NCBI GenBank assembly: GCA_905236715.1
Contig: CAJOMQ010000009.1
Location: forward strand, 1,562-65,561
Direction: 5' to 3'
Origin: an uncultured Bacilli bacterium
Lineage (GTDB): Bacteria; Bacillota_I; Bacilli_A; RFN20; CAG-826
DNA: 64,000 nt
Shown: piece after piece, positions 3,527 through 32,660 of the stretch
Position numbering within the stretch: the first letter of the stretch is position 1
How the letters are laid out: each line of letters opens with the position of its first letter
Notes under the pieces: generated by a model
Database searches by the model: none
The model's input: the letters and a program-made list of their open reading frames with translations, nothing else
What the model was told of the DNA's origin: nothing
Position numbers and translations under genes: made by a program

Positions 3527-5380
3527 TTATTGTCTTTTCTTTCTTTTTAACATGATAAAGCAGAAAGCAACGATAGAAACAGCCACAAAGGAGACAGAGA
3601 CAACTAACATAGCAGAACCATTATTTTCGATGCCGATAAAGGAAATCTTATTTCTTCCTAATGGATCGATGCCTGTTTTGATATATTCAATTGTTTGTCC
3701 AATGGTGTAAGAAACATCAGCGGCGTTTTCAAAGAAATTAGCGGATGTCGCTGATTGACCAAAAGAATAATCCATGGAATTACTGACAATAGCTTGTACA
3801 TCAGCATCAAGTTCATCATATTCCGCGACTAAGGCTTGCACAGGATCACTAGTTTTAATAGAGCACCATGTACCACCATTAGCGAGGTTTCTCAAAGTAT
3901 TGTAATAACGACTTACAAAATCATAAGCTTGACCAAAAGTGGTATCACTATCACCAACATATTGGTCTAAAACCACACCATGATAGGTCGGATTTTCATT
4001 AAATTGTTGAAGGATTCTATCGACTTTGAATGATGGATAAGAATCATATTTAGTTATCACTTCATCAAAATACGCTAATCCCCAGTTGCCACCAGTGCGG
4101 TCATCACTGAGAACTACACGCACTTTTTGACCTAGATAATCAGAACAATCTAAATAGGTTCTTGCCATTGTGTTATAACGGCTACCGGATAACATGATAT
4201 TATCAACACCGCCTTTATCAGCAAAAGCTCTATTAAGAATGTTTGTACCAGAGGCTTCATTAAGACGAGTCGTAGCTAATTCAATACCAGTGGAACCAAT
4301 TAAAGATAAAACAGCGGTTCCACCACCAAGTTTAGCAGAAATTAAACCAGTTCCACTTAAGGTGAATTCAGGAGAAATTAAACGATATTTTGCATCTTCG
4401 GCAATGCCGCTGGCATCAGCGTTAATGTAATAATTGCCAGTCTTATTAGCGGGCATTCTTTCCACCCAGTCTTTCGCATCATTATCAGAAACGATAGAGG
4501 CAAAATTGATATCAGCAGTCGCAAAGTTTCTATCATAGGCCCAATTTGTTAAACCATATGTTTCAAAGCCATCATCAACATTATCTATATTCGCAATAGC
4601 GGCATTAAGAGCGTCATAAGCACTGCCGGCATAGTATGTATTGAGCATATAATCAGCAGAAAAATTGTTTTGTGGAGATAATTGGGCATCCAAAGCAATT
4701 TGTTGCTTATGAGCCGCAAAGCTCAATGCCACTTCTTCAAGAGTTTGGTTAACACGAAGATCACCAAAAATAACACCGCCATAATAAGAGGTAGCAGTGT
4801 CTTCGATATAAACAATTAGTTCACGTCCAATATATTCATCGGGAATAGAGAAATATCTAAGAGCCATATTGGCTGATAATTCAAAATCGCTCGCGGTGCC
4901 ATTTACATAAGCATCATCAAAAGCATTTCTAGAAGCATAGAAATCGTTATGAACATTAAAGATATTTACTCCGTTATCTTTTCCTTCTTCTGGTTCTGCC
5001 CAAATATTGACAAAGCAATCTCTATTGCCACCAAGTAAGAAAGAAACATAGCCGCCTTTATGAACCCATCTAACACTTCTCACCCAGCCGGTTTCGCCTT
5101 CGCCTACTCTAGCCATTGTATTTAAGAAATTTTCTAATGAATTATAAGATCTTCTACCATCATGGAAGGTTTCGTTTCTAGCACTGATTAAATTCTCCAT
5201 AGCGACATCACTAAAGCCACCACGATAGAAATTGGTATTATTCATCGCTAAATATTTCGTAACTTCTTCTTCGGCTTTCACTTGTTGATAACGGCTACCT
5301 TGCGTATGCACGGAAATCAAACCACTTCCTGCCAAAGCGAATAAACTTGCTAAAAGGGAAAAACGTAAAATCTTTTTCAT
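3527..5380 (-). CDS. Secreted, C-terminally membrane-anchored non-catalytic protein with two CBM38-like repeats
   Basis: Signal peptide ending VKA-EE. LISPEFTLSGTGLISAKLGGG...YLGQKVRVVLSD...NWGLAYFDEV aligns by eye with the repeats of 6784-9267. C-terminal TM helix plus KRKKRQ. Confidence 0.7.
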   Translation of the reverse strand: MKKILRFSLLASLFALAGSGLISVHTQGSRYQQVKAEEEVTKYLAMNNTNFYRGGFSDVAMENLISARNETFHDGRRSYNSLENFLNTMARVGEGETGWVRSVRWVHKGGYVSFLLGGNRDCFVNIWAEPEEGKDNGVNIFNVHNDFYASRNAFDDAYVNGTASDFELSANMALRYFSIPDEYIGRELIVYIEDTATSYYGGVIFGDLRVNQTLEEVALSFAAHKQQIALDAQLSPQNNFSADYMLNTYYAGSAYDALNAAIANIDNVDDGFETYGLTNWAYDRNFATADINFASIVSDNDAKDWVERMPANKTGNYYINADASGIAEDAKYRLISPEFTLSGTGLISAKLGGGTAVLSLIGSTGIELATTRLNEASGTNILNRAFADKGGVDNIMLSGSRYNTMARTYLDCSDYLGQKVRVVLSDDRTGGNWGLAYFDEVITKYDSYPSFKVDRILQQFNENPTYHGVVLDQYVGDSDTTFGQAYDFVSRYYNTLRNLANGGTWCSIKTSDPVQALVAEYDELDADVQAIVSNSMDYSFGQSATSANFFENAADVSYTIGQTIEYIKTGIDPLGRNKISFIGIENNGSAMLVVSVSFVAVSIVAFCFIMLKRKKRQ

Positions 5381-25423: not shown

Positions 25424-26659
25424 TTATTCCTCATCACTATCGGTTAAATCGATGGCTTGTCTTTCCTCATCCAAAGATGAATTTGATGAAATCGCGTCAA
25501 ATTTGTTATTAATACGGTTAAAACGAGAATCGAGTTTTTCTCTGGTTCCGGTGACCGTTGATAATTGACGGGAGAAAGTGGTCCATTCATCGTTAAATAA
25601 TCTAAATTGTTTGCCTAAGGCTACTAATTGTTTGGATATTTCTTGGACATTTTTGGCTCTTTCGGCTTCAATTTTTACCATATTAATAGTCACTAAAATA
25701 GGCGGTAAGGTGGAAGGGGAAGTTAAGACCACACCTTTTTCACGGGAATAATCCACGACTTCTTCTAAATCGTGGTGAATATAGGCAAATACCCCATCAT
25801 TAGGGATAAACATAATGGCATAGGCCGCGGTTTTGCCGGGGATAATATATTTATTTTTGATATCAGTGATATGTTTTTTCACCGCGTTAGCGAAATTCTT
25901 TTTGAGGGTTTCTTTTTCGTTTTCATCTTGGCTATCAAACATCCTTGAATAATCTTGGAAAGGGAATTTGGAATCAATACAAATTAATTTGTTTGGTTCG
26001 GGAACAAATACCACAGCGTCTGCACGGACATCATCACCATCTTTGACTTTTTTCAAAGTATATTGTTCTTCGTAGCAGCCAATCGTATCACCAAAGACAT
26101 TATTGAGCACCATGGATAATTGATATTCACCATAACGCCCACGGCTTTGATTACCTTCTAAGACATTCTTTAATGAAACAACGTCTTTAGATAAGTCTTC
26201 AATATTCTTTTGTGCGGCATCAATGGCCTGTAATCTTTCTCTGACTTGGGTGAGAGTTTCTCCGGTCCCTTTAAAGCCTTCCGCTAATTTGTCATCAACT
26301 TTTTGATTAATCGCGGCTAATTTATCATCGATTTGCTTATTTAAAGCATCAAAACGAGTATTGATGGAATCGGAAATATTCCTTTGGAATCTCTCTAATT
26401 TTTCATTGTTATTTTCACTATTTTTCAAAGATTGCTCTAAGACTTTTTGCATTTCTTGTCCTAAGGCAATTTGCATATCTTTTTGAATATCTTTTGAAAG
26501 ATTATTTAATTGGGTGGATAAAGCGATGATTTCTTTATTATCGACTGGTAATTCTTTCTCGTTCTTCTTATTTAAATTTTTGATTAATAAAATAATAGCG
26601 ATAATTAAACCGACAAAAATTAATGAACATAAGACGATGATAATAACAGTTTCTACCAT
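25424..26659 (-). CDS. rmuC: DNA recombination protein RmuC
   Basis: N-terminal TM and coiled coil, then RGRYGEYQL...DAVV...IDSKFP...KYI...MFIP...SPSTL. Confidence 0.92.
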   Translation of the reverse strand: MVETVIIIVLCSLIFVGLIIAIILLIKNLNKKNEKELPVDNKEIIALSTQLNNLSKDIQKDMQIALGQEMQKVLEQSLKNSENNNEKLERFQRNISDSINTRFDALNKQIDDKLAAINQKVDDKLAEGFKGTGETLTQVRERLQAIDAAQKNIEDLSKDVVSLKNVLEGNQSRGRYGEYQLSMVLNNVFGDTIGCYEEQYTLKKVKDGDDVRADAVVFVPEPNKLICIDSKFPFQDYSRMFDSQDENEKETLKKNFANAVKKHITDIKNKYIIPGKTAAYAIMFIPNDGVFAYIHHDLEEVVDYSREKGVVLTSPSTLPPILVTINMVKIEAERAKNVQEISKQLVALGKQFRLFNDEWTTFSRQLSTVTGTREKLDSRFNRINNKFDAISSNSSLDEERQAIDLTDSDEE

Positions 26660-26673
26660 AAATGATTCTCCTT

Positions 26674-27771
26674 TTATTTATCCACTTCTTCTTTATATGT
26701 ATCAGCGGTCTCCTCTTGATAGATATGACTAATCCACATAATCGTGACACTATTCGTGGACCCAATATTTTCAATATTATGGGTATATTCAGGAAGCATA
26801 TCAACAATTTGACAGTCTTCTCCTTTAACATTATATGTTAATAATTCATTCGTGTGAATATTTCTTTCTTTAATTAAACAATGTCCTACGACTGTCATAA
26901 ATTTTTCATTCTTATAAAGGTGATAATGATTGCCTTTAACAATATGAGGATAAGACATATTGATACTTATTTGACCATATTTTTCATTTTTATAAATTTC
27001 TTGGAAATAGCCACGATTATCTTTGGCTTTATTCAAAGAATAAGTGGGATCAGTTAAATAATCGCAGAAGGTGATGAATAATTTCAAAGTAAAATCATCC
27101 TTAATAAGGGGGAGATGTTGTTCGCTTTCGATGTCTTTTTTGAATCGATATAATTCATCTGCAAGGTGGCCCAATGAACACTGAAAGACGGGTGTAACGG
27201 ATAAAATTTCATTTGATGGTTTTCGATTTCCTTTAATACATTGGAGAAATTCCAAACAAATATCATCAATATAATTGAAATTAACGATGTAATCGCGATC
27301 GCGAATTTGAATGGGTAAATCATGAGCGATGTTATAGCAAAATGTCGCACAGACAGAATTGTAATTGGGGCGGCACCATTTGCCAAAGACGTTGGCTAAA
27401 CGATAAACATATACAGGTAAATGCGAAGAAAATAGATAGTCTTCCGCCATCTTTTTGCTCTTCCCATAATCATTATCTAAACTAGCTTGAATGGAACTAG
27501 ATAAGATGATGGGTATTTCTCTATTACTGGCTTTGACCATATCCACGACTTTTTTGGTGAAATTGACATTGCCGTCATAAAATTCTTCATTTGTCAAAGG
27601 ACGATTGACACCCGCAAGATGAACAAGAAAATCACATTTATTGATATATTCTTTTAGCAAAGAAATATCATCATCAATATCAAAAGGTAAAACATCATAT
27701 CCTTCTTCTTTTAATAAAGAAGTGAGATGCTTTCCAATAAATCCTTTTGCGCCTGTGACTAATATTTGCAT
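26674..27771 (-). CDS. fnlB: NAD-dependent epimerase/reductase with C-terminal cupin, FnlB/CapF/WbjC type
   Basis: TGAKGFIG, HLAGVNRP, YGKSK, NVFGKWCRPNYNS, cupin GNHYH...E.F. Confidence 0.88.
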   Translation of the reverse strand: MQILVTGAKGFIGKHLTSLLKEEGYDVLPFDIDDDISLLKEYINKCDFLVHLAGVNRPLTNEEFYDGNVNFTKKVVDMVKASNREIPIILSSSIQASLDNDYGKSKKMAEDYLFSSHLPVYVYRLANVFGKWCRPNYNSVCATFCYNIAHDLPIQIRDRDYIVNFNYIDDICLEFLQCIKGNRKPSNEILSVTPVFQCSLGHLADELYRFKKDIESEQHLPLIKDDFTLKLFITFCDYLTDPTYSLNKAKDNRGYFQEIYKNEKYGQISINMSYPHIVKGNHYHLYKNEKFMTVVGHCLIKERNIHTNELLTYNVKGEDCQIVDMLPEYTHNIENIGSTNSVTIMWISHIYQEETADTYKEEVDK

Positions 27772-27782
27772 ATATATCCTTA

Positions 27783-28976
27783 TTATTCGTGTTGTCTAAC
27801 TGGTCCACCAAATAATTCTAATTTCTTTAAAAGAGTTTTCATCTCTTCGACATTTAAACGACCCGTATTATGGGAGGTATAAGATTCACCAAGATTGAGT
27901 TTTTTATTACCTTTGGAGAAATATTTATCGTAATTTAAATCGCGATTATCAGCGATGACGCGATAGAAATTACCACAGTCAATAGCTCTTACCATCTCTT
28001 CTTGTGTCACTAAGGTCTCATATAATTTCTCACCATGACGGGTACCGATATATTCAATGCCGGTTTTACTATTGGTTAATTCAATGACTGCTTTCGCTAA
28101 GGTATCAATGGTGGCCGCGGGGGCTTTTTGTACGAATAAGTCACCTTGTTCACCATTTTCAAAAGCGTATAAAACTAAATCCACGGCATCATCTAGAGTC
28201 ATCATAAATCTTGTCATATCAGGATTAGTGATGGTAATAGGTTTACCTTCATGAATTTGATTTAAAAATAAGGGGATAACACTACCACGACTAGCCATCA
28301 CATTCCCATATCTAGTGAGGCAAAGAATCGTGTCTCCTGGTAATAATTGGCGACTTCTCGCAATCACATTTTTTTCCATCAAAGCTTTGCTTATGCCCAT
28401 CGCATTAATGGGGTAAGCCGCTTTATCGGTGGATAAGAAGATGGCCTTTTTAACATGATTTCGTACACAAGCGGTGATGACATTATCACTACCAATGACG
28501 TTAGTTCTGACCGCTTCCATGGGATAAAACTCACAAGAAGGAACTTGTTTTAAAGCCGCGGCGGAAAAGACATAATCAACACCTTTAAAAGCGTCGATAA
28601 TGCTATCGAGATTACGGACATCACCAATATAGAATTTTAATTTGTCATTATTATAAGCCTTACGCATATCATCTTGTTTCTTTTCGTCACGCGATAAAAT
28701 GCGGATTTCTTTGATTTCGGTATCTAAAAAGCGATCGACAACCGCGTGACCAAAACTACCGGTGCCACCAGTGATGAGTAAGACTTTATCTTTGAGAATA
28801 GAAGTTTGTTTGCTCGCGTATTCATTGAGCTTTTCAATCATTCTTTCTAATTTCAATTGATCCGCTTTGGTTTCATCTAATTCATAAGCCACATAGGTGC
28901 GATTTGACATACCAATGACTTTCGCGGCTTCACTTTGTGTTAATTTACATTTTTTGCGTGTTTCTCTTAATGTCAT
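27783..28976 (-). CDS. fnlA: XRE-HTH fused to UDP-GlcNAc 4,6-dehydratase/5-epimerase (FnlA/CapE/WbjB type)
   Basis: Residues ~1-55 LRETRKKCKLTQSEAAKVIGMSNRTYVAYE (HTH_3), then ITGGTGSFG, SRDEKKQDDMR, AAALKQVPSCE, STDKA and RYGNVMASRGSVIP. Confidence 0.9.
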   Translation of the reverse strand: MTLRETRKKCKLTQSEAAKVIGMSNRTYVAYELDETKADQLKLERMIEKLNEYASKQTSILKDKVLLITGGTGSFGHAVVDRFLDTEIKEIRILSRDEKKQDDMRKAYNNDKLKFYIGDVRNLDSIIDAFKGVDYVFSAAALKQVPSCEFYPMEAVRTNVIGSDNVITACVRNHVKKAIFLSTDKAAYPINAMGISKALMEKNVIARSRQLLPGDTILCLTRYGNVMASRGSVIPLFLNQIHEGKPITITNPDMTRFMMTLDDAVDLVLYAFENGEQGDLFVQKAPAATIDTLAKAVIELTNSKTGIEYIGTRHGEKLYETLVTQEEMVRAIDCGNFYRVIADNRDLNYDKYFSKGNKKLNLGESYTSHNTGRLNVEEMKTLLKKLELFGGPVRQHE

Positions 28977-29036
28977 AAGAAATACCTCTTTACCTTTATA
29001 ATATATTATTAAAAGGATTTATAAGTAAATGAAAAT

Positions 29037-29051
29037 ATGCAAATATTGCAT
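29037..29051. promoter_or_regulatory. Palindrome ATGCAA-ATA-TTGCAT, putative XRE operator
   Basis: Perfect 6-3-6 dyad 61-75 nt upstream of the XRE-fnlA start. Confidence 0.6.
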
Positions 29052-29080
29052 TTTTATGTAACTAGATATATTGAGTATTT

Positions 29081-30085
29081 TCACATGTCGATATGAAAAT
29101 ATTCGTCATCGTCATCTTTATTTTTCTTTGGTGATTTCTTCTTTTTAGCAAATATTATTTTCCAATATTTCTTCATGGAGAAATTTTCCGCACCATAATA
29201 GGCAAAATATTTGCGATGCGCGGAAGCGATGAAAATGGCGAATATGATACATAGAACTAAAGGCCCTAAAAGGCTGAGAGATGATAATAATAAAACCTTG
29301 CTATTATCTAACTTTGATAGAGCGAAATATCCGAGAATTAAATTAACACCAAAACCCACCGCAAAGAAACCGATGGAAGTTAGGGAAATGATTTTATTTT
29401 TCTGAAAATACGGGAGCATTTTTTCATTTTTTAAATCAGTCAGAATGAAAGATGTATAAATAAATGATTCACCAATGAATAACAAAAGAATAATGACCGC
29501 GCTGAAGTAGCTTTTATCAATAAAGAAATAAAGCGATAAGAAAAATAGGACTTCCACCATCAAGGGACAAACACTACTGACCGCAAAATTAAAGCGGTTA
29601 TTGCGTTTTTTATTGTAAGAACTTTCTTCTTTATCCTTTGGATTAGCGCGCATCAAAATGGGATAGGTATTATTTCCACTTTCTAAAGCGGGAACATATT
29701 TATCAATAAAACAGAATAATGGGTGATATTTTTCCACGATTTGAAAAACCATCGCCACTTTATAATCGATTTCGCTTTGATTATTCGAAGGTAATTCTTT
29801 TAAACTAGCAATCTCATTAATGAGATTTTTATAAATTTGCCCATCTTCCACTTTGAGGAAAAGAAAATATAAAGTTATCTTGGCGCTGACATTAACTTTG
29901 ATGGTAACCAGTTGTTCAGCGGCATAATCTACATCAAATATGGAAAGAGATAAATTTTGTTTTTTGGCTAATTTAGCTAATTTATCAACGGTGGAACCGC
30001 CTTTTTTGTCATACATCAAATAATTATCGGATTGATAAATGACCTGTTTTTTCTCATCTTGTAAGGTATAAATGGCAAATTTCAT
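29081..30085 (-). CDS. Hypothetical membrane protein (soluble N-terminus, four C-terminal TM helices)
   Basis: 334-aa ORF co-oriented with its neighbours; no family recognised. Confidence 0.65.
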   Translation of the reverse strand: MKFAIYTLQDEKKQVIYQSDNYLMYDKKGGSTVDKLAKLAKKQNLSLSIFDVDYAAEQLVTIKVNVSAKITLYFLFLKVEDGQIYKNLINEIASLKELPSNNQSEIDYKVAMVFQIVEKYHPLFCFIDKYVPALESGNNTYPILMRANPKDKEESSYNKKRNNRFNFAVSSVCPLMVEVLFFLSLYFFIDKSYFSAVIILLLFIGESFIYTSFILTDLKNEKMLPYFQKNKIISLTSIGFFAVGFGVNLILGYFALSKLDNSKVLLLSSLSLLGPLVLCIIFAIFIASAHRKYFAYYGAENFSMKKYWKIIFAKKKKSPKKNKDDDDEYFHIDM

Positions 30086-30124
30086 ATCTATCTAATTAAA
30101 AGTAAGCATATAGCGGTATTTTTT

Positions 30125-31492
30125 TCAATCTCTTTTATAAATATCGCGTGTAAAGACTTTGACCTTATATGGTGATAATTCTTTATACATACGATTGGTA
30201 ATGATCACATCAGATTGATTGATAAAAGTGGTAAAATCCGCGATAGAATTATTATACATCTTATCATAAATGATAACTTTGATATTTTTTTCTAACAAAA
30301 GATAATAGACATCTAAAGATGAACTAGAGCGATAATTGTCGGAACCCGCTTTCATGGATAATTTATATATACCAATGGTAATATCTTCAATATTCTTTTT
30401 GGTTTTTTCAAAAGCAAATTCGATGATTTTATCCGCAATAAATTCTTTTCTTGTTTGATTAGAAATTAATAACGCTCGTATCAGATTGCTATTGGCGATA
30501 CCCACAAAAGAAGAAGATAATTGGGCACTATCTTTCGGTAAGCAATACCCGCCATAACCAAATGATGGGTTATTGTAATAATCACCAATGCGGGGATCAT
30601 AAGACATTCCTTTGATGATATTTTCGCTATTGAGATTATGCGATAAAGCATAGGAATCTAATTCATTAAAATACGCTACACGCATTGCTAAATAAGCATT
30701 AGAAAATAATTTCGTGGCTTCCGCTTCTTTGGGGGACATATAAATAGCTTTATTGAGATTTAAGGCGGCTTGCTCTAATAGATGGGCAAATTGTTTGGCC
30801 ATTTTATTATTTGTATTGGCCCCAATAATAATGCGTGAAGGATATAAATTATCATATAAAGCGTGTCCTTCACGGAGAAATTCAGGTGAAAAAATAATAT
30901 TTAGATGGGGATATTTTTCTGTCATCAGATTGGTAAAACCGATAGGCACTGTTGATTTAATGACCACTAAGGCGTGAGAATTAATTGCGTTAACAAGAAA
31001 AATAACTTCTTCCACTGAATGGGTATTAAATTGTCCACTTCCTTCATCAAAATCCGTCGGTGTGGCAATGATAATAATATCGGCATCTTGATATGCACTA
31101 TTGCTCATTGTCGCGGAAATGGTCAGTTTTTTGTTTGCTATATAATCTTCAATTAATGGGTCTTTGAATGGGGAAATATGCTGATTGATTTTATCAACTT
31201 TTTCTGAGATGAGGTCCACCATTGTCACACAATTATTTTGGCTTAATAAAACACCCAACGATAAGCCGACATAACCAATTCCGGCTATAGTGATTTTATA
31301 ATTTACATCATTATGTATTTTTTTCTTCTTTTTCTTATAAGAGTGAATTATTTCATAGATATTTTGGTATTTGAAAGAATCAGTGGACCCACTATTCTCA
31401 ATTCTTTTATATGTTCTTAAAGGAACATTGACTAATTTAGAGGCCTCAGTTTGTGTTAATCCCTTGCTGATTCTTAATTGTTTGAGATCCAT
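30125..31492 (-). CDS. ugd: XRE-HTH fused to UDP-glucose 6-dehydrogenase
   Basis: Probable start MDLKQLRISKGLTQTEASKLVNVPLRTYKRIE (ATG 31492), then GIGYVG, IIATPT, KSTVP, SPEFLREG and GYGGYCLPKD. Confidence 0.9.
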   Translation of the reverse strand: MDLKQLRISKGLTQTEASKLVNVPLRTYKRIENSGSTDSFKYQNIYEIIHSYKKKKKKIHNDVNYKITIAGIGYVGLSLGVLLSQNNCVTMVDLISEKVDKINQHISPFKDPLIEDYIANKKLTISATMSNSAYQDADIIIIATPTDFDEGSGQFNTHSVEEVIFLVNAINSHALVVIKSTVPIGFTNLMTEKYPHLNIIFSPEFLREGHALYDNLYPSRIIIGANTNNKMAKQFAHLLEQAALNLNKAIYMSPKEAEATKLFSNAYLAMRVAYFNELDSYALSHNLNSENIIKGMSYDPRIGDYYNNPSFGYGGYCLPKDSAQLSSSFVGIANSNLIRALLISNQTRKEFIADKIIEFAFEKTKKNIEDITIGIYKLSMKAGSDNYRSSSSLDVYYLLLEKNIKVIIYDKMYNNSIADFTTFINQSDVIITNRMYKELSPYKVKVFTRDIYKRD

Positions 31493-31527
31493 ACCTATAT
31501 GATAAAAGAATAATATAAAAAATAAAA

Positions 31528-31542
31528 GTGCCATTTTGGCAC
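31528..31542. promoter_or_regulatory. Palindrome GTGCCA-TTT-TGGCAC, putative XRE operator
   Basis: Perfect 6-3-6 dyad 36-50 nt upstream of the XRE-ugd start; related to 29037-29051. Confidence 0.6.
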
Positions 31543-31556
31543 CTTGTTATTTAATT

Positions 31557-32660
31557 TTAACCAAGCAAGTTAATGACTAGTTGGAAGATCGTTTCAATCA
31601 TCGATAAGGCGATAAATAATAAACCACATACAGGGATTAATATATCCACCATTTTGCTGCTTTCTTTATGCGTGCGGTTATATGAGAATAACATCACAAA
31701 GGGGATGACAATAAAGATTGAAGCGGTTTGTCCTAAACCAATATTGATGAGGAATTGGCCAAAAACGCTTTCGGATAATCCGGGAACCGTGCGAATAATG
31801 ACAAAGAAAATAATATCGGTAATCGAGACCGCTAAAAACATCGCACTGGTGAAAATAGAAAAATGTAAGGAAGCGGTATTGGTGTTTAAAAAGCGAGAAT
31901 ATTCCGCCATTGTGCGGCCATTTTTCCGGAAAATCATTTCGCGATGTTTGACAAATAAACATAAGAAAATGAAAGCTAAGAATAACAAGAATGGCTTCGT
32001 GGATATTAAAGGATAAATATAAGTGGGGACGGTAAACAAAATGCCATCCACTCCTTTAAAGAACATAGCGATTAATTCATATAAAATAGGAAAGGCAATA
32101 AAGCTACGGAAAATATGAATTTTCTTTCCTTTAAAATGTTTTTTCGGAACATAAGTGAGGAAGAAATAAAATAAAGTCCAAATTAATAAATCCACGAAGA
32201 TATTAAAGGAAGCATGTTCTTTTAATAACGCTTTTACCAAGACATCCGCCACCTCCACCGTAGCGCTGCTATCTTTCATAAAAATGTTGAGTAAAGCATA
32301 AAAATAATGGAAATAGAAGAATAAGAAAATGCCATATACCGCTAGAAAAGCACAGGCATAGAAAATGATAAATCGAAAGAAATTCTGCCTTCTTTTTAAA
32401 ATCAAAGAAAAATTAGCGATTAAAAATAACGGAGCGGAAATAATTGAAAAAGAATTCAATATATTCGCCACAATCGTCATGGCGTGTGCATCGGGATATC
32501 CTTCGCCTAAAATACGCAAGGCAAAAGATAAGATGATAGCCACTTGGCCAAGAGCGAGACCCACCCATGCGAATATTCTTAAATGACGATAACTAAATGG
32601 ACCACGATATTTAATGTCGTTTTCTTCATTTGTGGTCAAAATATTTTTGTTAATTCGCAT
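31557..32660 (-). CDS. Hypothetical polytopic membrane protein
   Basis: 367 aa with about nine hydrophobic segments; N-terminal DIKYRGPFSYRHLR. Confidence 0.75.
   Translation of the reverse strand: MRINKNILTTNEENDIKYRGPFSYRHLRIFAWVGLALGQVAIILSFALRILGEGYPDAHAMTIVANILNSFSIISAPLFLIANFSLILKRRQNFFRFIIFYACAFLAVYGIFLFFYFHYFYALLNIFMKDSSATVEVADVLVKALLKEHASFNIFVDLLIWTLFYFFLTYVPKKHFKGKKIHIFRSFIAFPILYELIAMFFKGVDGILFTVPTYIYPLISTKPFLLFLAFIFLCLFVKHREMIFRKNGRTMAEYSRFLNTNTASLHFSIFTSAMFLAVSITDIIFFVIIRTVPGLSESVFGQFLINIGLGQTASIFIVIPFVMLFSYNRTHKESSKMVDILIPVCGLLFIALSMIETIFQLVINLLG

Follow-up and report, generated by a model that had tools for sequence, protein, structure and literature searches.

BirA, NadR and PutA are trigger enzymes, bifunctional proteins that act both as enzyme and as repressor. 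RbkR (PMC5397151) is reported to be an archaeal enzyme-repressor of this sort. This work concerns two genes of similar construction in a stretch of 64,000 nucleotides from an uncultured Bacilli bacterium (GenBank assembly GCA_905236715.1, contig CAJOMQ010000009.1, positions 1,562 to 65,561), which as a whole we call the window. Both genes lie on the minus strand. One (27783-28976, 397 residues) encodes an enzyme like FnlA, a UDP-N-acetylglucosamine (UDP-GlcNAc) 4,6-dehydratase/5-epimerase, and the other (30125-31492, 455 residues) an enzyme like Ugd, UDP-glucose 6-dehydrogenase; each carries an XRE-type helix-turn-helix (HTH) at its N-terminus, in frame. Upstream of each stands a perfect dyad, ATGCAA-N3-TTGCAT at 29037-29051 for fnlA and GTGCCA-N3-TGGCAC at 31528-31542 for ugd. 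The fusions resemble BirA, NadR, PutA and RbkR in joining, in one polypeptide, a metabolic enzyme and a DNA-binding domain directed at genes of that enzyme's pathway. They differ in several respects. The sole operator found here belongs to the gene's own promoter. The HTH used here is of the XRE/Cro type, a cassette in common with toxin-antitoxin nucleotidyltransferases, and the partner enzymes act on nucleotide sugars for surface polysaccharides. We think it likely that the fusion enzymes bind their cognate dyads and control their own synthesis, and that promoter, operator and HTH make up a portable cassette which fnlA and ugd captured separately.

Lambda cI, MqsA and PezA are HTH proteins that control their own genes from operators lying on or beside the -35 element, and the cI messenger made from PRM is leaderless, the layout we predict for the Ugd fusions. 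These are dedicated regulators, whereas the fusions bear a full enzyme of 330-390 residues. The controller (C) proteins of restriction-modification (R-M) systems are small, stand-alone proteins encoded beside R-M genes, with paired operators. Like the proposed arrangement, they are XRE-fold dimers on short spaced dyads at their own promoters, and an earlier reading of the window made without database searches (hereafter the sequence-only reading) drew the comparison with them. It holds as an analogy, that of an XRE dimer on a spaced dyad. It does not hold for the rest, since the HTH here is fused to 330-390 residues of enzyme, each gene has a single dyad, and a Pfam scan found no R-M genes flanking the fusions, whose neighbours are sugar enzymes and membrane open reading frames (ORFs). 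A profile of the HTH matches C.BclI (E 0.0014) and C.Esp1396I (E 0.8) more weakly than it does 3mlf, PezA and MqsA, which are the nearest solved HTHs. The MntA-like nucleotidyltransferases of HepT/MntA (type VII) modules resemble the fusions in the type of HTH, in the kinds of dyad and in the way the promoter is laid out. The cargo here is a housekeeping-type sugar enzyme and not an antitoxin, and a Pfam scan of the neighbours found no toxin partner adjoining fnlA or ugd. According to Makarova et al. 2009 (PMC2701414), xre-like HTHs occur fused to various domains, and MNT-HEPN modules may require a DNA-binding component in trans. A full-text search of a limited literature collection found no description of an XRE-Ugd or XRE-FnlA fusion.

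The sequence-only reading had reported the two fusions and the two dyads, and its observation is confirmed in position and in letters. In the FnlA-like protein, HTH_3 matches residues 3-51 (36.1 bits, E 6.8e-9, against a Pfam cut-off of 23), followed by Polysacc_synt_2 at 66-340 and Polysacc_syn_2C at 343-387. In the Ugd-like protein, HTH_3 matches residues 3-34 (26.5 bits, cut-off 23) and is followed by the N-terminal, central and C-terminal UDPG_MGDP_dh domains. The gathering score is exceeded in both, and an AlphaFold2 model of the Ugd fusion (mean predicted local distance difference test score, pLDDT, 87.7) predicts a compact HTH fold, with N-terminal helices at residues 3-9, 14-20, 25-32 and 40-51 in a block of pLDDT 85-93, then a linker at 56-61 below 50, then the dehydrogenase fold. 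The HTH and its linker take up residues 1-60 of each protein, encoded at 28797-28976 for FnlA, where the linker is helical, and at 31313-31492 for Ugd, where it is rich in lysine as a poly-Lys run. The longest ORF of the second gene begins at 31534, inside the dyad; the conserved start is 31492, as the sequence-only reading had it.

The enzyme parts are encoded at 27783-28796 and 30125-31312. The FnlA moiety matches PDB 4j2o with E 6e-147 across residues 58-389, CapE being also close, and the Ugd moiety matches PDB 3phl with E 3.5e-114 across residues 65-455 (3phl and 1dlj span E 1e-110 to 1e-114). None of these four solved enzymes has an HTH, and the matching begins at about residue 58-66. 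The FnlA moiety scores best with TIGR04130, at 528.1 bits, under the equivalog cut-off of 730. The Ugd-like fusion reaches 402.9 bits with the equivalog model NF011631, whose cut-off is 757, and passes the nucleotide-sugar dehydrogenase subfamily model TIGR03026 (298.6 bits, cut-off 189.8). Because the strict equivalog cut-offs are unmet we speak of 'FnlA-like' and 'Ugd-like' proteins, and we infer the substrate of the Ugd-like enzyme below the level of an equivalog assignment. The cysteine of the GGxCxxKD motif is the catalytic residue of UDP-glucose 6-dehydrogenase, and G315, Y316, C317, L318, P319, K320 and D321 of this motif are invariant across 24 Ugd fusions. Both enzyme parts are apparently intact.

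The case for the dyads comes from other genomes. Of 40 related genomes, 13 encode the FnlA fusion at full length, another 5 have a FnlA homolog without the HTH, beginning near residue 54-61, and 2 further matches run off the end of a contig. Species-representative genomes, when scanned, yielded a further 18 FnlA fusions, from gut or rumen metagenome-assembled genomes labelled Bacilli, Bacillales, Erysipelotrichaceae or Candidatus Fiminaster equi, and two of the further fusions are in bins labelled Bacteroidaceae and Gemmiger formicilis. Nearly all protein clusters matched by the FnlA HTH part (42 of 43) list PF01381 together with PF02719. The dyad RTGCAA-N3-TTGCAY is present in all 30 distinct upstream regions of FnlA fusions, with no mismatch in 12, one in 16 and two in 2, and it lies 62-75 nucleotides before the ATG in 29 of them. 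As background, 2.5% of 20,000 random 113-nucleotide windows from the same loci, the sites themselves included, reach two mismatches or fewer. The locus L005 has less than 110 nucleotides upstream and is outside this count; it carries GTGCAGTAACTGCAT. The genes that precede the dyads vary from locus to locus and include a membrane protein, a tRNA and divergent genes. The outermost dyad positions vary independently as R...Y, with A opposite C among the combinations, and they therefore fit protein half-sites and not RNA pairs. The HTH itself is, on the evidence of substitution rates, under purifying selection, the median ratio of nonsynonymous to synonymous change (dN/dS) in 31 FnlA fusions being 0.23 for the HTH and 0.05 for the enzyme, with dS near saturation. 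Residues Q14, R26 and E32 of the HTH are invariant among 29 sequences.

Within the family, 32 of 301 genomes, counting this one, have the Ugd fusion, its N-terminal 100 residues being matched from residue 1 in a frame of at least 400 residues; 3 more of the 301 have the match in shorter frames. A word-based protein search with the Ugd HTH part returned 6 proteins, too few to gauge how widely it is spread. Among 26 distinct upstream regions of Ugd fusions GTGCCA-N3-TGGCAC is exact in 13 and has one mismatch in 11, two in 1 and three in 1, the right half-site being no less conserved than the left. Nothing nearer than 3 mismatches to either dyad lies in the 200 nucleotides upstream of 12 unfused orthologs (7 Ugd, 5 FnlA). 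The consensus RTGCMA-N3-TKGCAY that the sequence-only reading drew from the two copies in the window holds well upstream of orthologous fusions, its FnlA form at two mismatches or fewer (30 of 30) and its Ugd form at one or fewer (24 of 26). Four Ugd loci from one genus (L190, L193, L194 and L195) were read separately from the 26. Their HTH has RRNYQYLE, and three TTGCGC(AA) repeats replace the GTGCCA dyad. Two other Ugd fusions (L033 and L034, the same as L189 and L188, from genomes G007 and G008) are cut to about 330 residues, with two TAA stops in the homologous region; despite the shortened Ugd they retain a perfect 7-1-7 dyad and the spacing of -10 and ATG.

It is important to see that the HTH is not confined to sugar enzymes. 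The motif M.L.E.R...LTQ.EA.......RTY..YE, which we call RTY-type, has five copies in this genome, the two enzyme fusions and three nucleotidyltransferases of 155-162 residues with a Polbeta/NTP_transf_2 domain. These nucleotidyltransferases narrowly miss the MntA antitoxin model (48.7 and 58.9 bits, cut-off 60), and one of them, on contig C21, is followed by a HepT-GNAT fusion. All five RTY-HTH genes have an inverted repeat or dyad upstream; that of the copy on contig C12, found by eye, is a dyad with one mismatch, and the nucleotidyltransferase on contig C23 has TTGCCAAAATGGCAA. A profile of this HTH is present in 24 of 41 genomes and gives 540 matches at E <=1e-10 against 1.84 billion representative proteins. 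Among 29 of the 150 listed matches, chosen by length and scanned with Pfam, the partner is a nucleotidyltransferase in 8, Polysacc_synt_2 in 4, UDPG_MGDP_dh_N in 2, MarR in 1, generic tandem HTHs in 7 and nothing recognised in 7, and both architectures that the sequence-only reading had singled out are among these. The profile search is led by three proteins of 700-1000 residues with 8-11 tandem HTH_3 repeats (P0050, P0051 and P0052), which are uninformative on the cassette.

A good 6-3-6 site lies within 100 nucleotides upstream of 62 of the 77 distinct RTY-HTH genes that we compared. In the 34 genes whose second residue after RTY is Arg (KR, IR, CR, LR or RR), of which 32 have a site, half-site position 5 is C, as in GTGCCA, ATGNCA and TTGCCA. 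In the 35 genes with another residue there, of which 30 have a site, this position is A, as in RTGCAA, ACGCAA and GTGCAA. Base 1 of the half-site follows the first residue after RTY, being G for K, A for I or L, T for C, and A or G for V. An RTYKRYE nucleotidyltransferase from another family carries GTGCCAAAATGACAC, an RTYLRYE Ugd carries ATGACAAAATGGCAT, and the four Q-type Ugd fusions (RRNYQYLE) have repeated TTGCGC(AA), as Q-type nucleotidyltransferases do (TTGCGCA-N8-TGCGCAA). By this comparison the half-site bases track two recognition-helix residues irrespective of the attached enzyme. A tree of 76 HTH segments places the 32 FnlA HTHs in a single clade (98/96) next to those of Q-type nucleotidyltransferases, and puts the Ugd HTHs in the other half, with the K-, I- and C-type nucleotidyltransferases. 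The tree supports two separate captures, undated. In the covariation and the tree alike, a nucleotidyltransferase of 163 residues (L058) was counted as 'Ugd' and two Ugd-like proteins of 430 residues (L181 and L183) as 'other'.

The sequence-only reading took the dyads to be operators of the fused HTHs, and that idea is largely supported by their conservation with the fusions, by their covariation with the recognition helix and by their absence before all 12 unfused orthologs. It went on to offer two explanations, trigger enzymes or a portable operator and HTH repeatedly fused to enzymes. The comparisons favour the cassette: MntA-like nucleotidyltransferases, both here and in related genomes, are headed by the same HTH type with the same kinds of dyad, FnlA and Ugd carry HTHs from different branches of the tree, and Ugd is found with three HTH/operator pairings.

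The position of the dyads relative to putative promoters is informative as well. For fnlA a consensus scan gives a promoter-like TTTACT-18-TATATT (29000-29029, minus strand) that starts 7 nucleotides downstream of the dyad. FnlA orthologs have clearer TTGACA/TATAAT boxes at a matching distance (TTGACA-16-TATAAT in L003), and wherever the promoter is legible the dyad ends 6-7 nucleotides before the -35, its centre being at about -49. For ugd a -10-like TATCAT (31499-31504, minus strand) lies 6 nucleotides before the ATG, the arrangement of a leaderless start. A hexamer that agrees with TATAAT in at least 5 of 6 positions lies 5-8 nucleotides before the ATG in 24 of the 26 Ugd fusions, and exactly 6 before it in 19; at that spot a TATAAT-like hexamer is present in 1 of 31 FnlA fusions and in none of the 12 unfused orthologs. 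A Shine-Dalgarno-like motif precedes 29 of 31 FnlA fusions versus 0 of 26 Ugd fusions. This layout predicts that the messengers of ugd fusions are leaderless, given the presumed transcription start. A search for RNA runs containing the 4-kb stretch around the two genes returned none. In 17 of the 26 the left half-site lies 16-19 nucleotides before the -10, which is the -35 position, and so binding there should repress. In the other 9, the window copy included, the dyad is 15-24 nucleotides further upstream. The layout recurs in two nucleotidyltransferase genes (L047 and L050) with HTHs on the Ugd side of the tree; L047 has TTGCCAAAATGGCAA as its -35, then TATTAT, 6 nucleotides and the ATG.

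Sites of this kind are few in the 1.29-Mb genome. The consensus RTGCMA-N3-TKGCAY has 3 copies where 1.5 are expected, and TGCCA-N3-TGGCA has 3 where 1.0 is expected, two of which precede RTY-HTH genes, ugd and the C23 nucleotidyltransferase. The perfect Ugd-type operator has no second copy in the genome, and the one other perfect FnlA-type site (C4:154568) is within a coding frame. As to a wider regulon, the genome search for perfect sites gave none beyond the two promoters. Each fusion protein seems to be aimed at its own promoter because there are no other perfect non-coding sites.

We propose the following mechanism. An RTY-type module, the first 60 or so residues, would be held to a nucleotide-sugar enzyme by a flexible or helical linker, and the upstream dyad would be the cognate operator of that HTH. 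By binding its own promoter, presumably as a dimer formed through the oligomer of the enzyme, the fusion would set its own synthesis and probably that of co-transcribed genes. In the usual Ugd layout, with the left half-site on the -35, the -10 six nucleotides before the ATG and no Shine-Dalgarno sequence, the gene would be leaderless and self-repressed. Promoter, operator and HTH would form one portable cassette, whose usual cargo in this clade would be an MntA-like nucleotidyltransferase of the toxin-antitoxin type, and fnlA and ugd would have taken it up separately, from different HTH branches.

Several facts weigh against this reading. The window holds 45 perfect 6-3-6 dyads where Markov-1 simulations give 30.0 +/- 4.9, so a single dyad is unremarkable. 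The promoter boxes are consensus matches within AT-rich DNA. The window ugd dyad is 32 nucleotides from the -10 and off the -35, and repression is therefore less obvious at this copy, which a second -10, TATATT at 31517-31512, 19 nucleotides from GTGCCA, may serve. The support is wholly comparative, and the genomes are related, so that the 77 genes stand for about 8 truly independent lineages. The HTH tree has 58 columns and a midpoint root. The HTH_3 match of Ugd is partial, covering profile positions 1-32 of 55. Finally, the Ugd dyad is the first-listed terminator-like site of its region, with a 9-pair stem and a T-run, and a same-strand ORF ends within 80 nucleotides upstream in 14 of 25 loci of each kind. 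We reject a chance origin of the dyads: they stand above chance because they are kept with fusion genes in other genomes and are absent upstream of unfused orthologs. The terminator-like features deserve more attention. It could be argued that the dyads are intrinsic terminators or insulators of the upstream genes, near the fusions by position only, and that the HTH has another target or none. In gene sense the two read ATGCAA-TAT-TTGCAT (29051-29037) and GTGCCA-AAA-TGGCAC (31542-31528). The Ugd dyad lies 14 nucleotides past the stop (31557-31559) of the upstream ORF and as RNA folds at -11.2 kcal/mol (z -3.3); at least 5 T follow in the next 8 nucleotides in 22 of 26 Ugd regions, and several dyad variants are G-U compatible on the sense strand. 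By its stable hairpin and T-run it is credible as a predicted intrinsic terminator, a feature that the sequence-only reading overlooked. The FnlA dyad, however, folds only weakly (-4.2 kcal/mol, z -0.98, a level equalled by 34 of 200 shuffles) and is not among the sites listed by the terminator scan. No same-strand ORF of at least 80 residues ends within 80 nucleotides upstream in 11 of 25 loci of each kind, and a T-run is missing after four Ugd dyads and after several of the nucleotidyltransferases, so a terminator role cannot explain the conservation. Moreover the dyad at L010 follows a tRNA gene that has a terminator-like hairpin and T-run of its own, A stands opposite C in some outer dyad pairs, the letters of the dyad follow residues of the HTH as those of a terminator would not, and the unfused orthologs lack the dyads. 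We reject termination as a sufficient explanation, given the weak fold of the FnlA dyad and the loci with no ORF end nearby, and hold it improbable that the dyads are there for this purpose only; the Ugd dyad in the window may have a second role as a terminator.

Another possibility is that the HTH is a passenger, the cassette having been captured for its promoter and leaderless start, with the dyad kept as a -35 or read by a separate regulator. The coincidence of the left half-site with the -35 position in 17 of 26 Ugd fusions would suit this, as would the partial HTH_3 match, and the genome has paralogous free RTY-HTH proteins that could act in trans. Yet the HTH is under purifying selection and has three invariant residues, the right half-site is conserved like the left despite being no promoter element, FnlA dyads lie outside the -35, and the bases of the operator shift in step with the residues of the cis-fused HTH. 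A passenger HTH thus seems to us quite unlikely. We return to the reading of the fusions as enzymes that bind their own promoters, which could be extended. The fusions could be true trigger enzymes, their HTH switched by ligand or by oligomeric state (UDP-glucose, UDP-glucuronic acid, NAD(H) or UDP-GlcNAc), so that precursor supply feeds back on transcription of the polysaccharide genes. The HTH and enzyme are in one chain with a flexible linker in the AlphaFold2 model, the enzymes keep intact and conserved catalytic motifs, the operator occurs at no promoter but the gene's own, and the fusion has been retained across many species under purifying selection. However, the same HTH serves small nucleotidyltransferases that have no such ligand, and plain negative autoregulation therefore suffices. 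HTH types have also been swapped on Ugd, which suggests a generic module rather than one tuned allosterically. We entertain the extension tentatively and with more doubt than belief. The same caution applies to the fullest version of the story, a speculative one: a mobile cassette of promoter, operator and HTH, leaderless in Ugd fusions and native to type VII antitoxins, with a code of two residues and two bases, that nucleotide-sugar enzymes of uncultured gut Bacilli repeatedly captured and swapped, yielding single-chain enzymes that would sense their ligand or their oligomeric state and adjust transcription of the surface-polysaccharide genes to it.

If the fused HTH does bind the dyad, each enzyme represses or tunes the gene that encodes it, which would give small-genome gut bacteria a compact feedback on the supply of capsule or surface-sugar precursors. 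It would also mean that ordinary metabolism can take over regulatory parts of toxin-antitoxin systems. The apparent code, in which the first residue after RTY goes with base 1 and the second with base 5, could yield small orthogonal repressor/operator pairs, and Bacillota gain further candidate leaderless genes from the predicted layout. Should the ligand-sensing extension prove true, the fusions would add a new class to the trigger enzymes and offer a natural autoregulation module that can be re-addressed.

Downstream of fnlA, after a gap of 11 nucleotides, are an FnlB/WbcJ-like reductase (26674-27771, minus strand; Pfam Epimerase and Polysacc_synt_C, and 336.5 bits with NF047837, under its cut-off of 500), an RmuC-family gene (25424-26659, minus strand) and a wecB-type 2-epimerase (264.2 bits, above 210.15), so that rmuC sits between the FnlB-like and wecB-type genes of a sugar operon. 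From their spacing fnlA and the FnlB-like gene probably share one transcript, and the control of fnlA probably extends to the FnlB-like, rmuC and wecB-type genes. The gene ugd is flanked by two membrane ORFs on the same minus strand, one of 334 residues at 29081-30085, 39 nucleotides downstream and possibly co-transcribed with it, and one of 367 residues at 31557-32660. Neither has a match in Pfam or NCBIfam, and an atlas search with the 334-residue ORF gave no usable match. FnlA and Ugd fusions are close together in at least two genomes, 1.1 kb apart in the window and within about 3.3 kb in L196 (genome G109).

Other HTH fusions were seen in the same genome. A third fusion of an HTH to a sugar enzyme is on contig C5 (L048:708-2351, minus strand), where HTH_3 precedes a four-domain phosphoglucomutase/phosphomannomutase in a protein of 547 residues; its HTH_3 is classical and not of the RTY type, and a glance upstream showed no obvious dyad. 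Contig C12 has a tandem pair of HTH_3 matches (4254-4652, plus strand) in one open frame of 603 residues. On contig C21 two fusions lie near an HTH-MntA-like gene, one of HTH_3 to a hexapeptide-repeat acetyltransferase (L046:2090-2944, minus strand, 284 residues), which adjoins that gene, and one of a HepT-like (HEPN) domain to a GNAT acetyltransferase (L046:564-1424, minus strand, 286 residues), which lies directly downstream of it.

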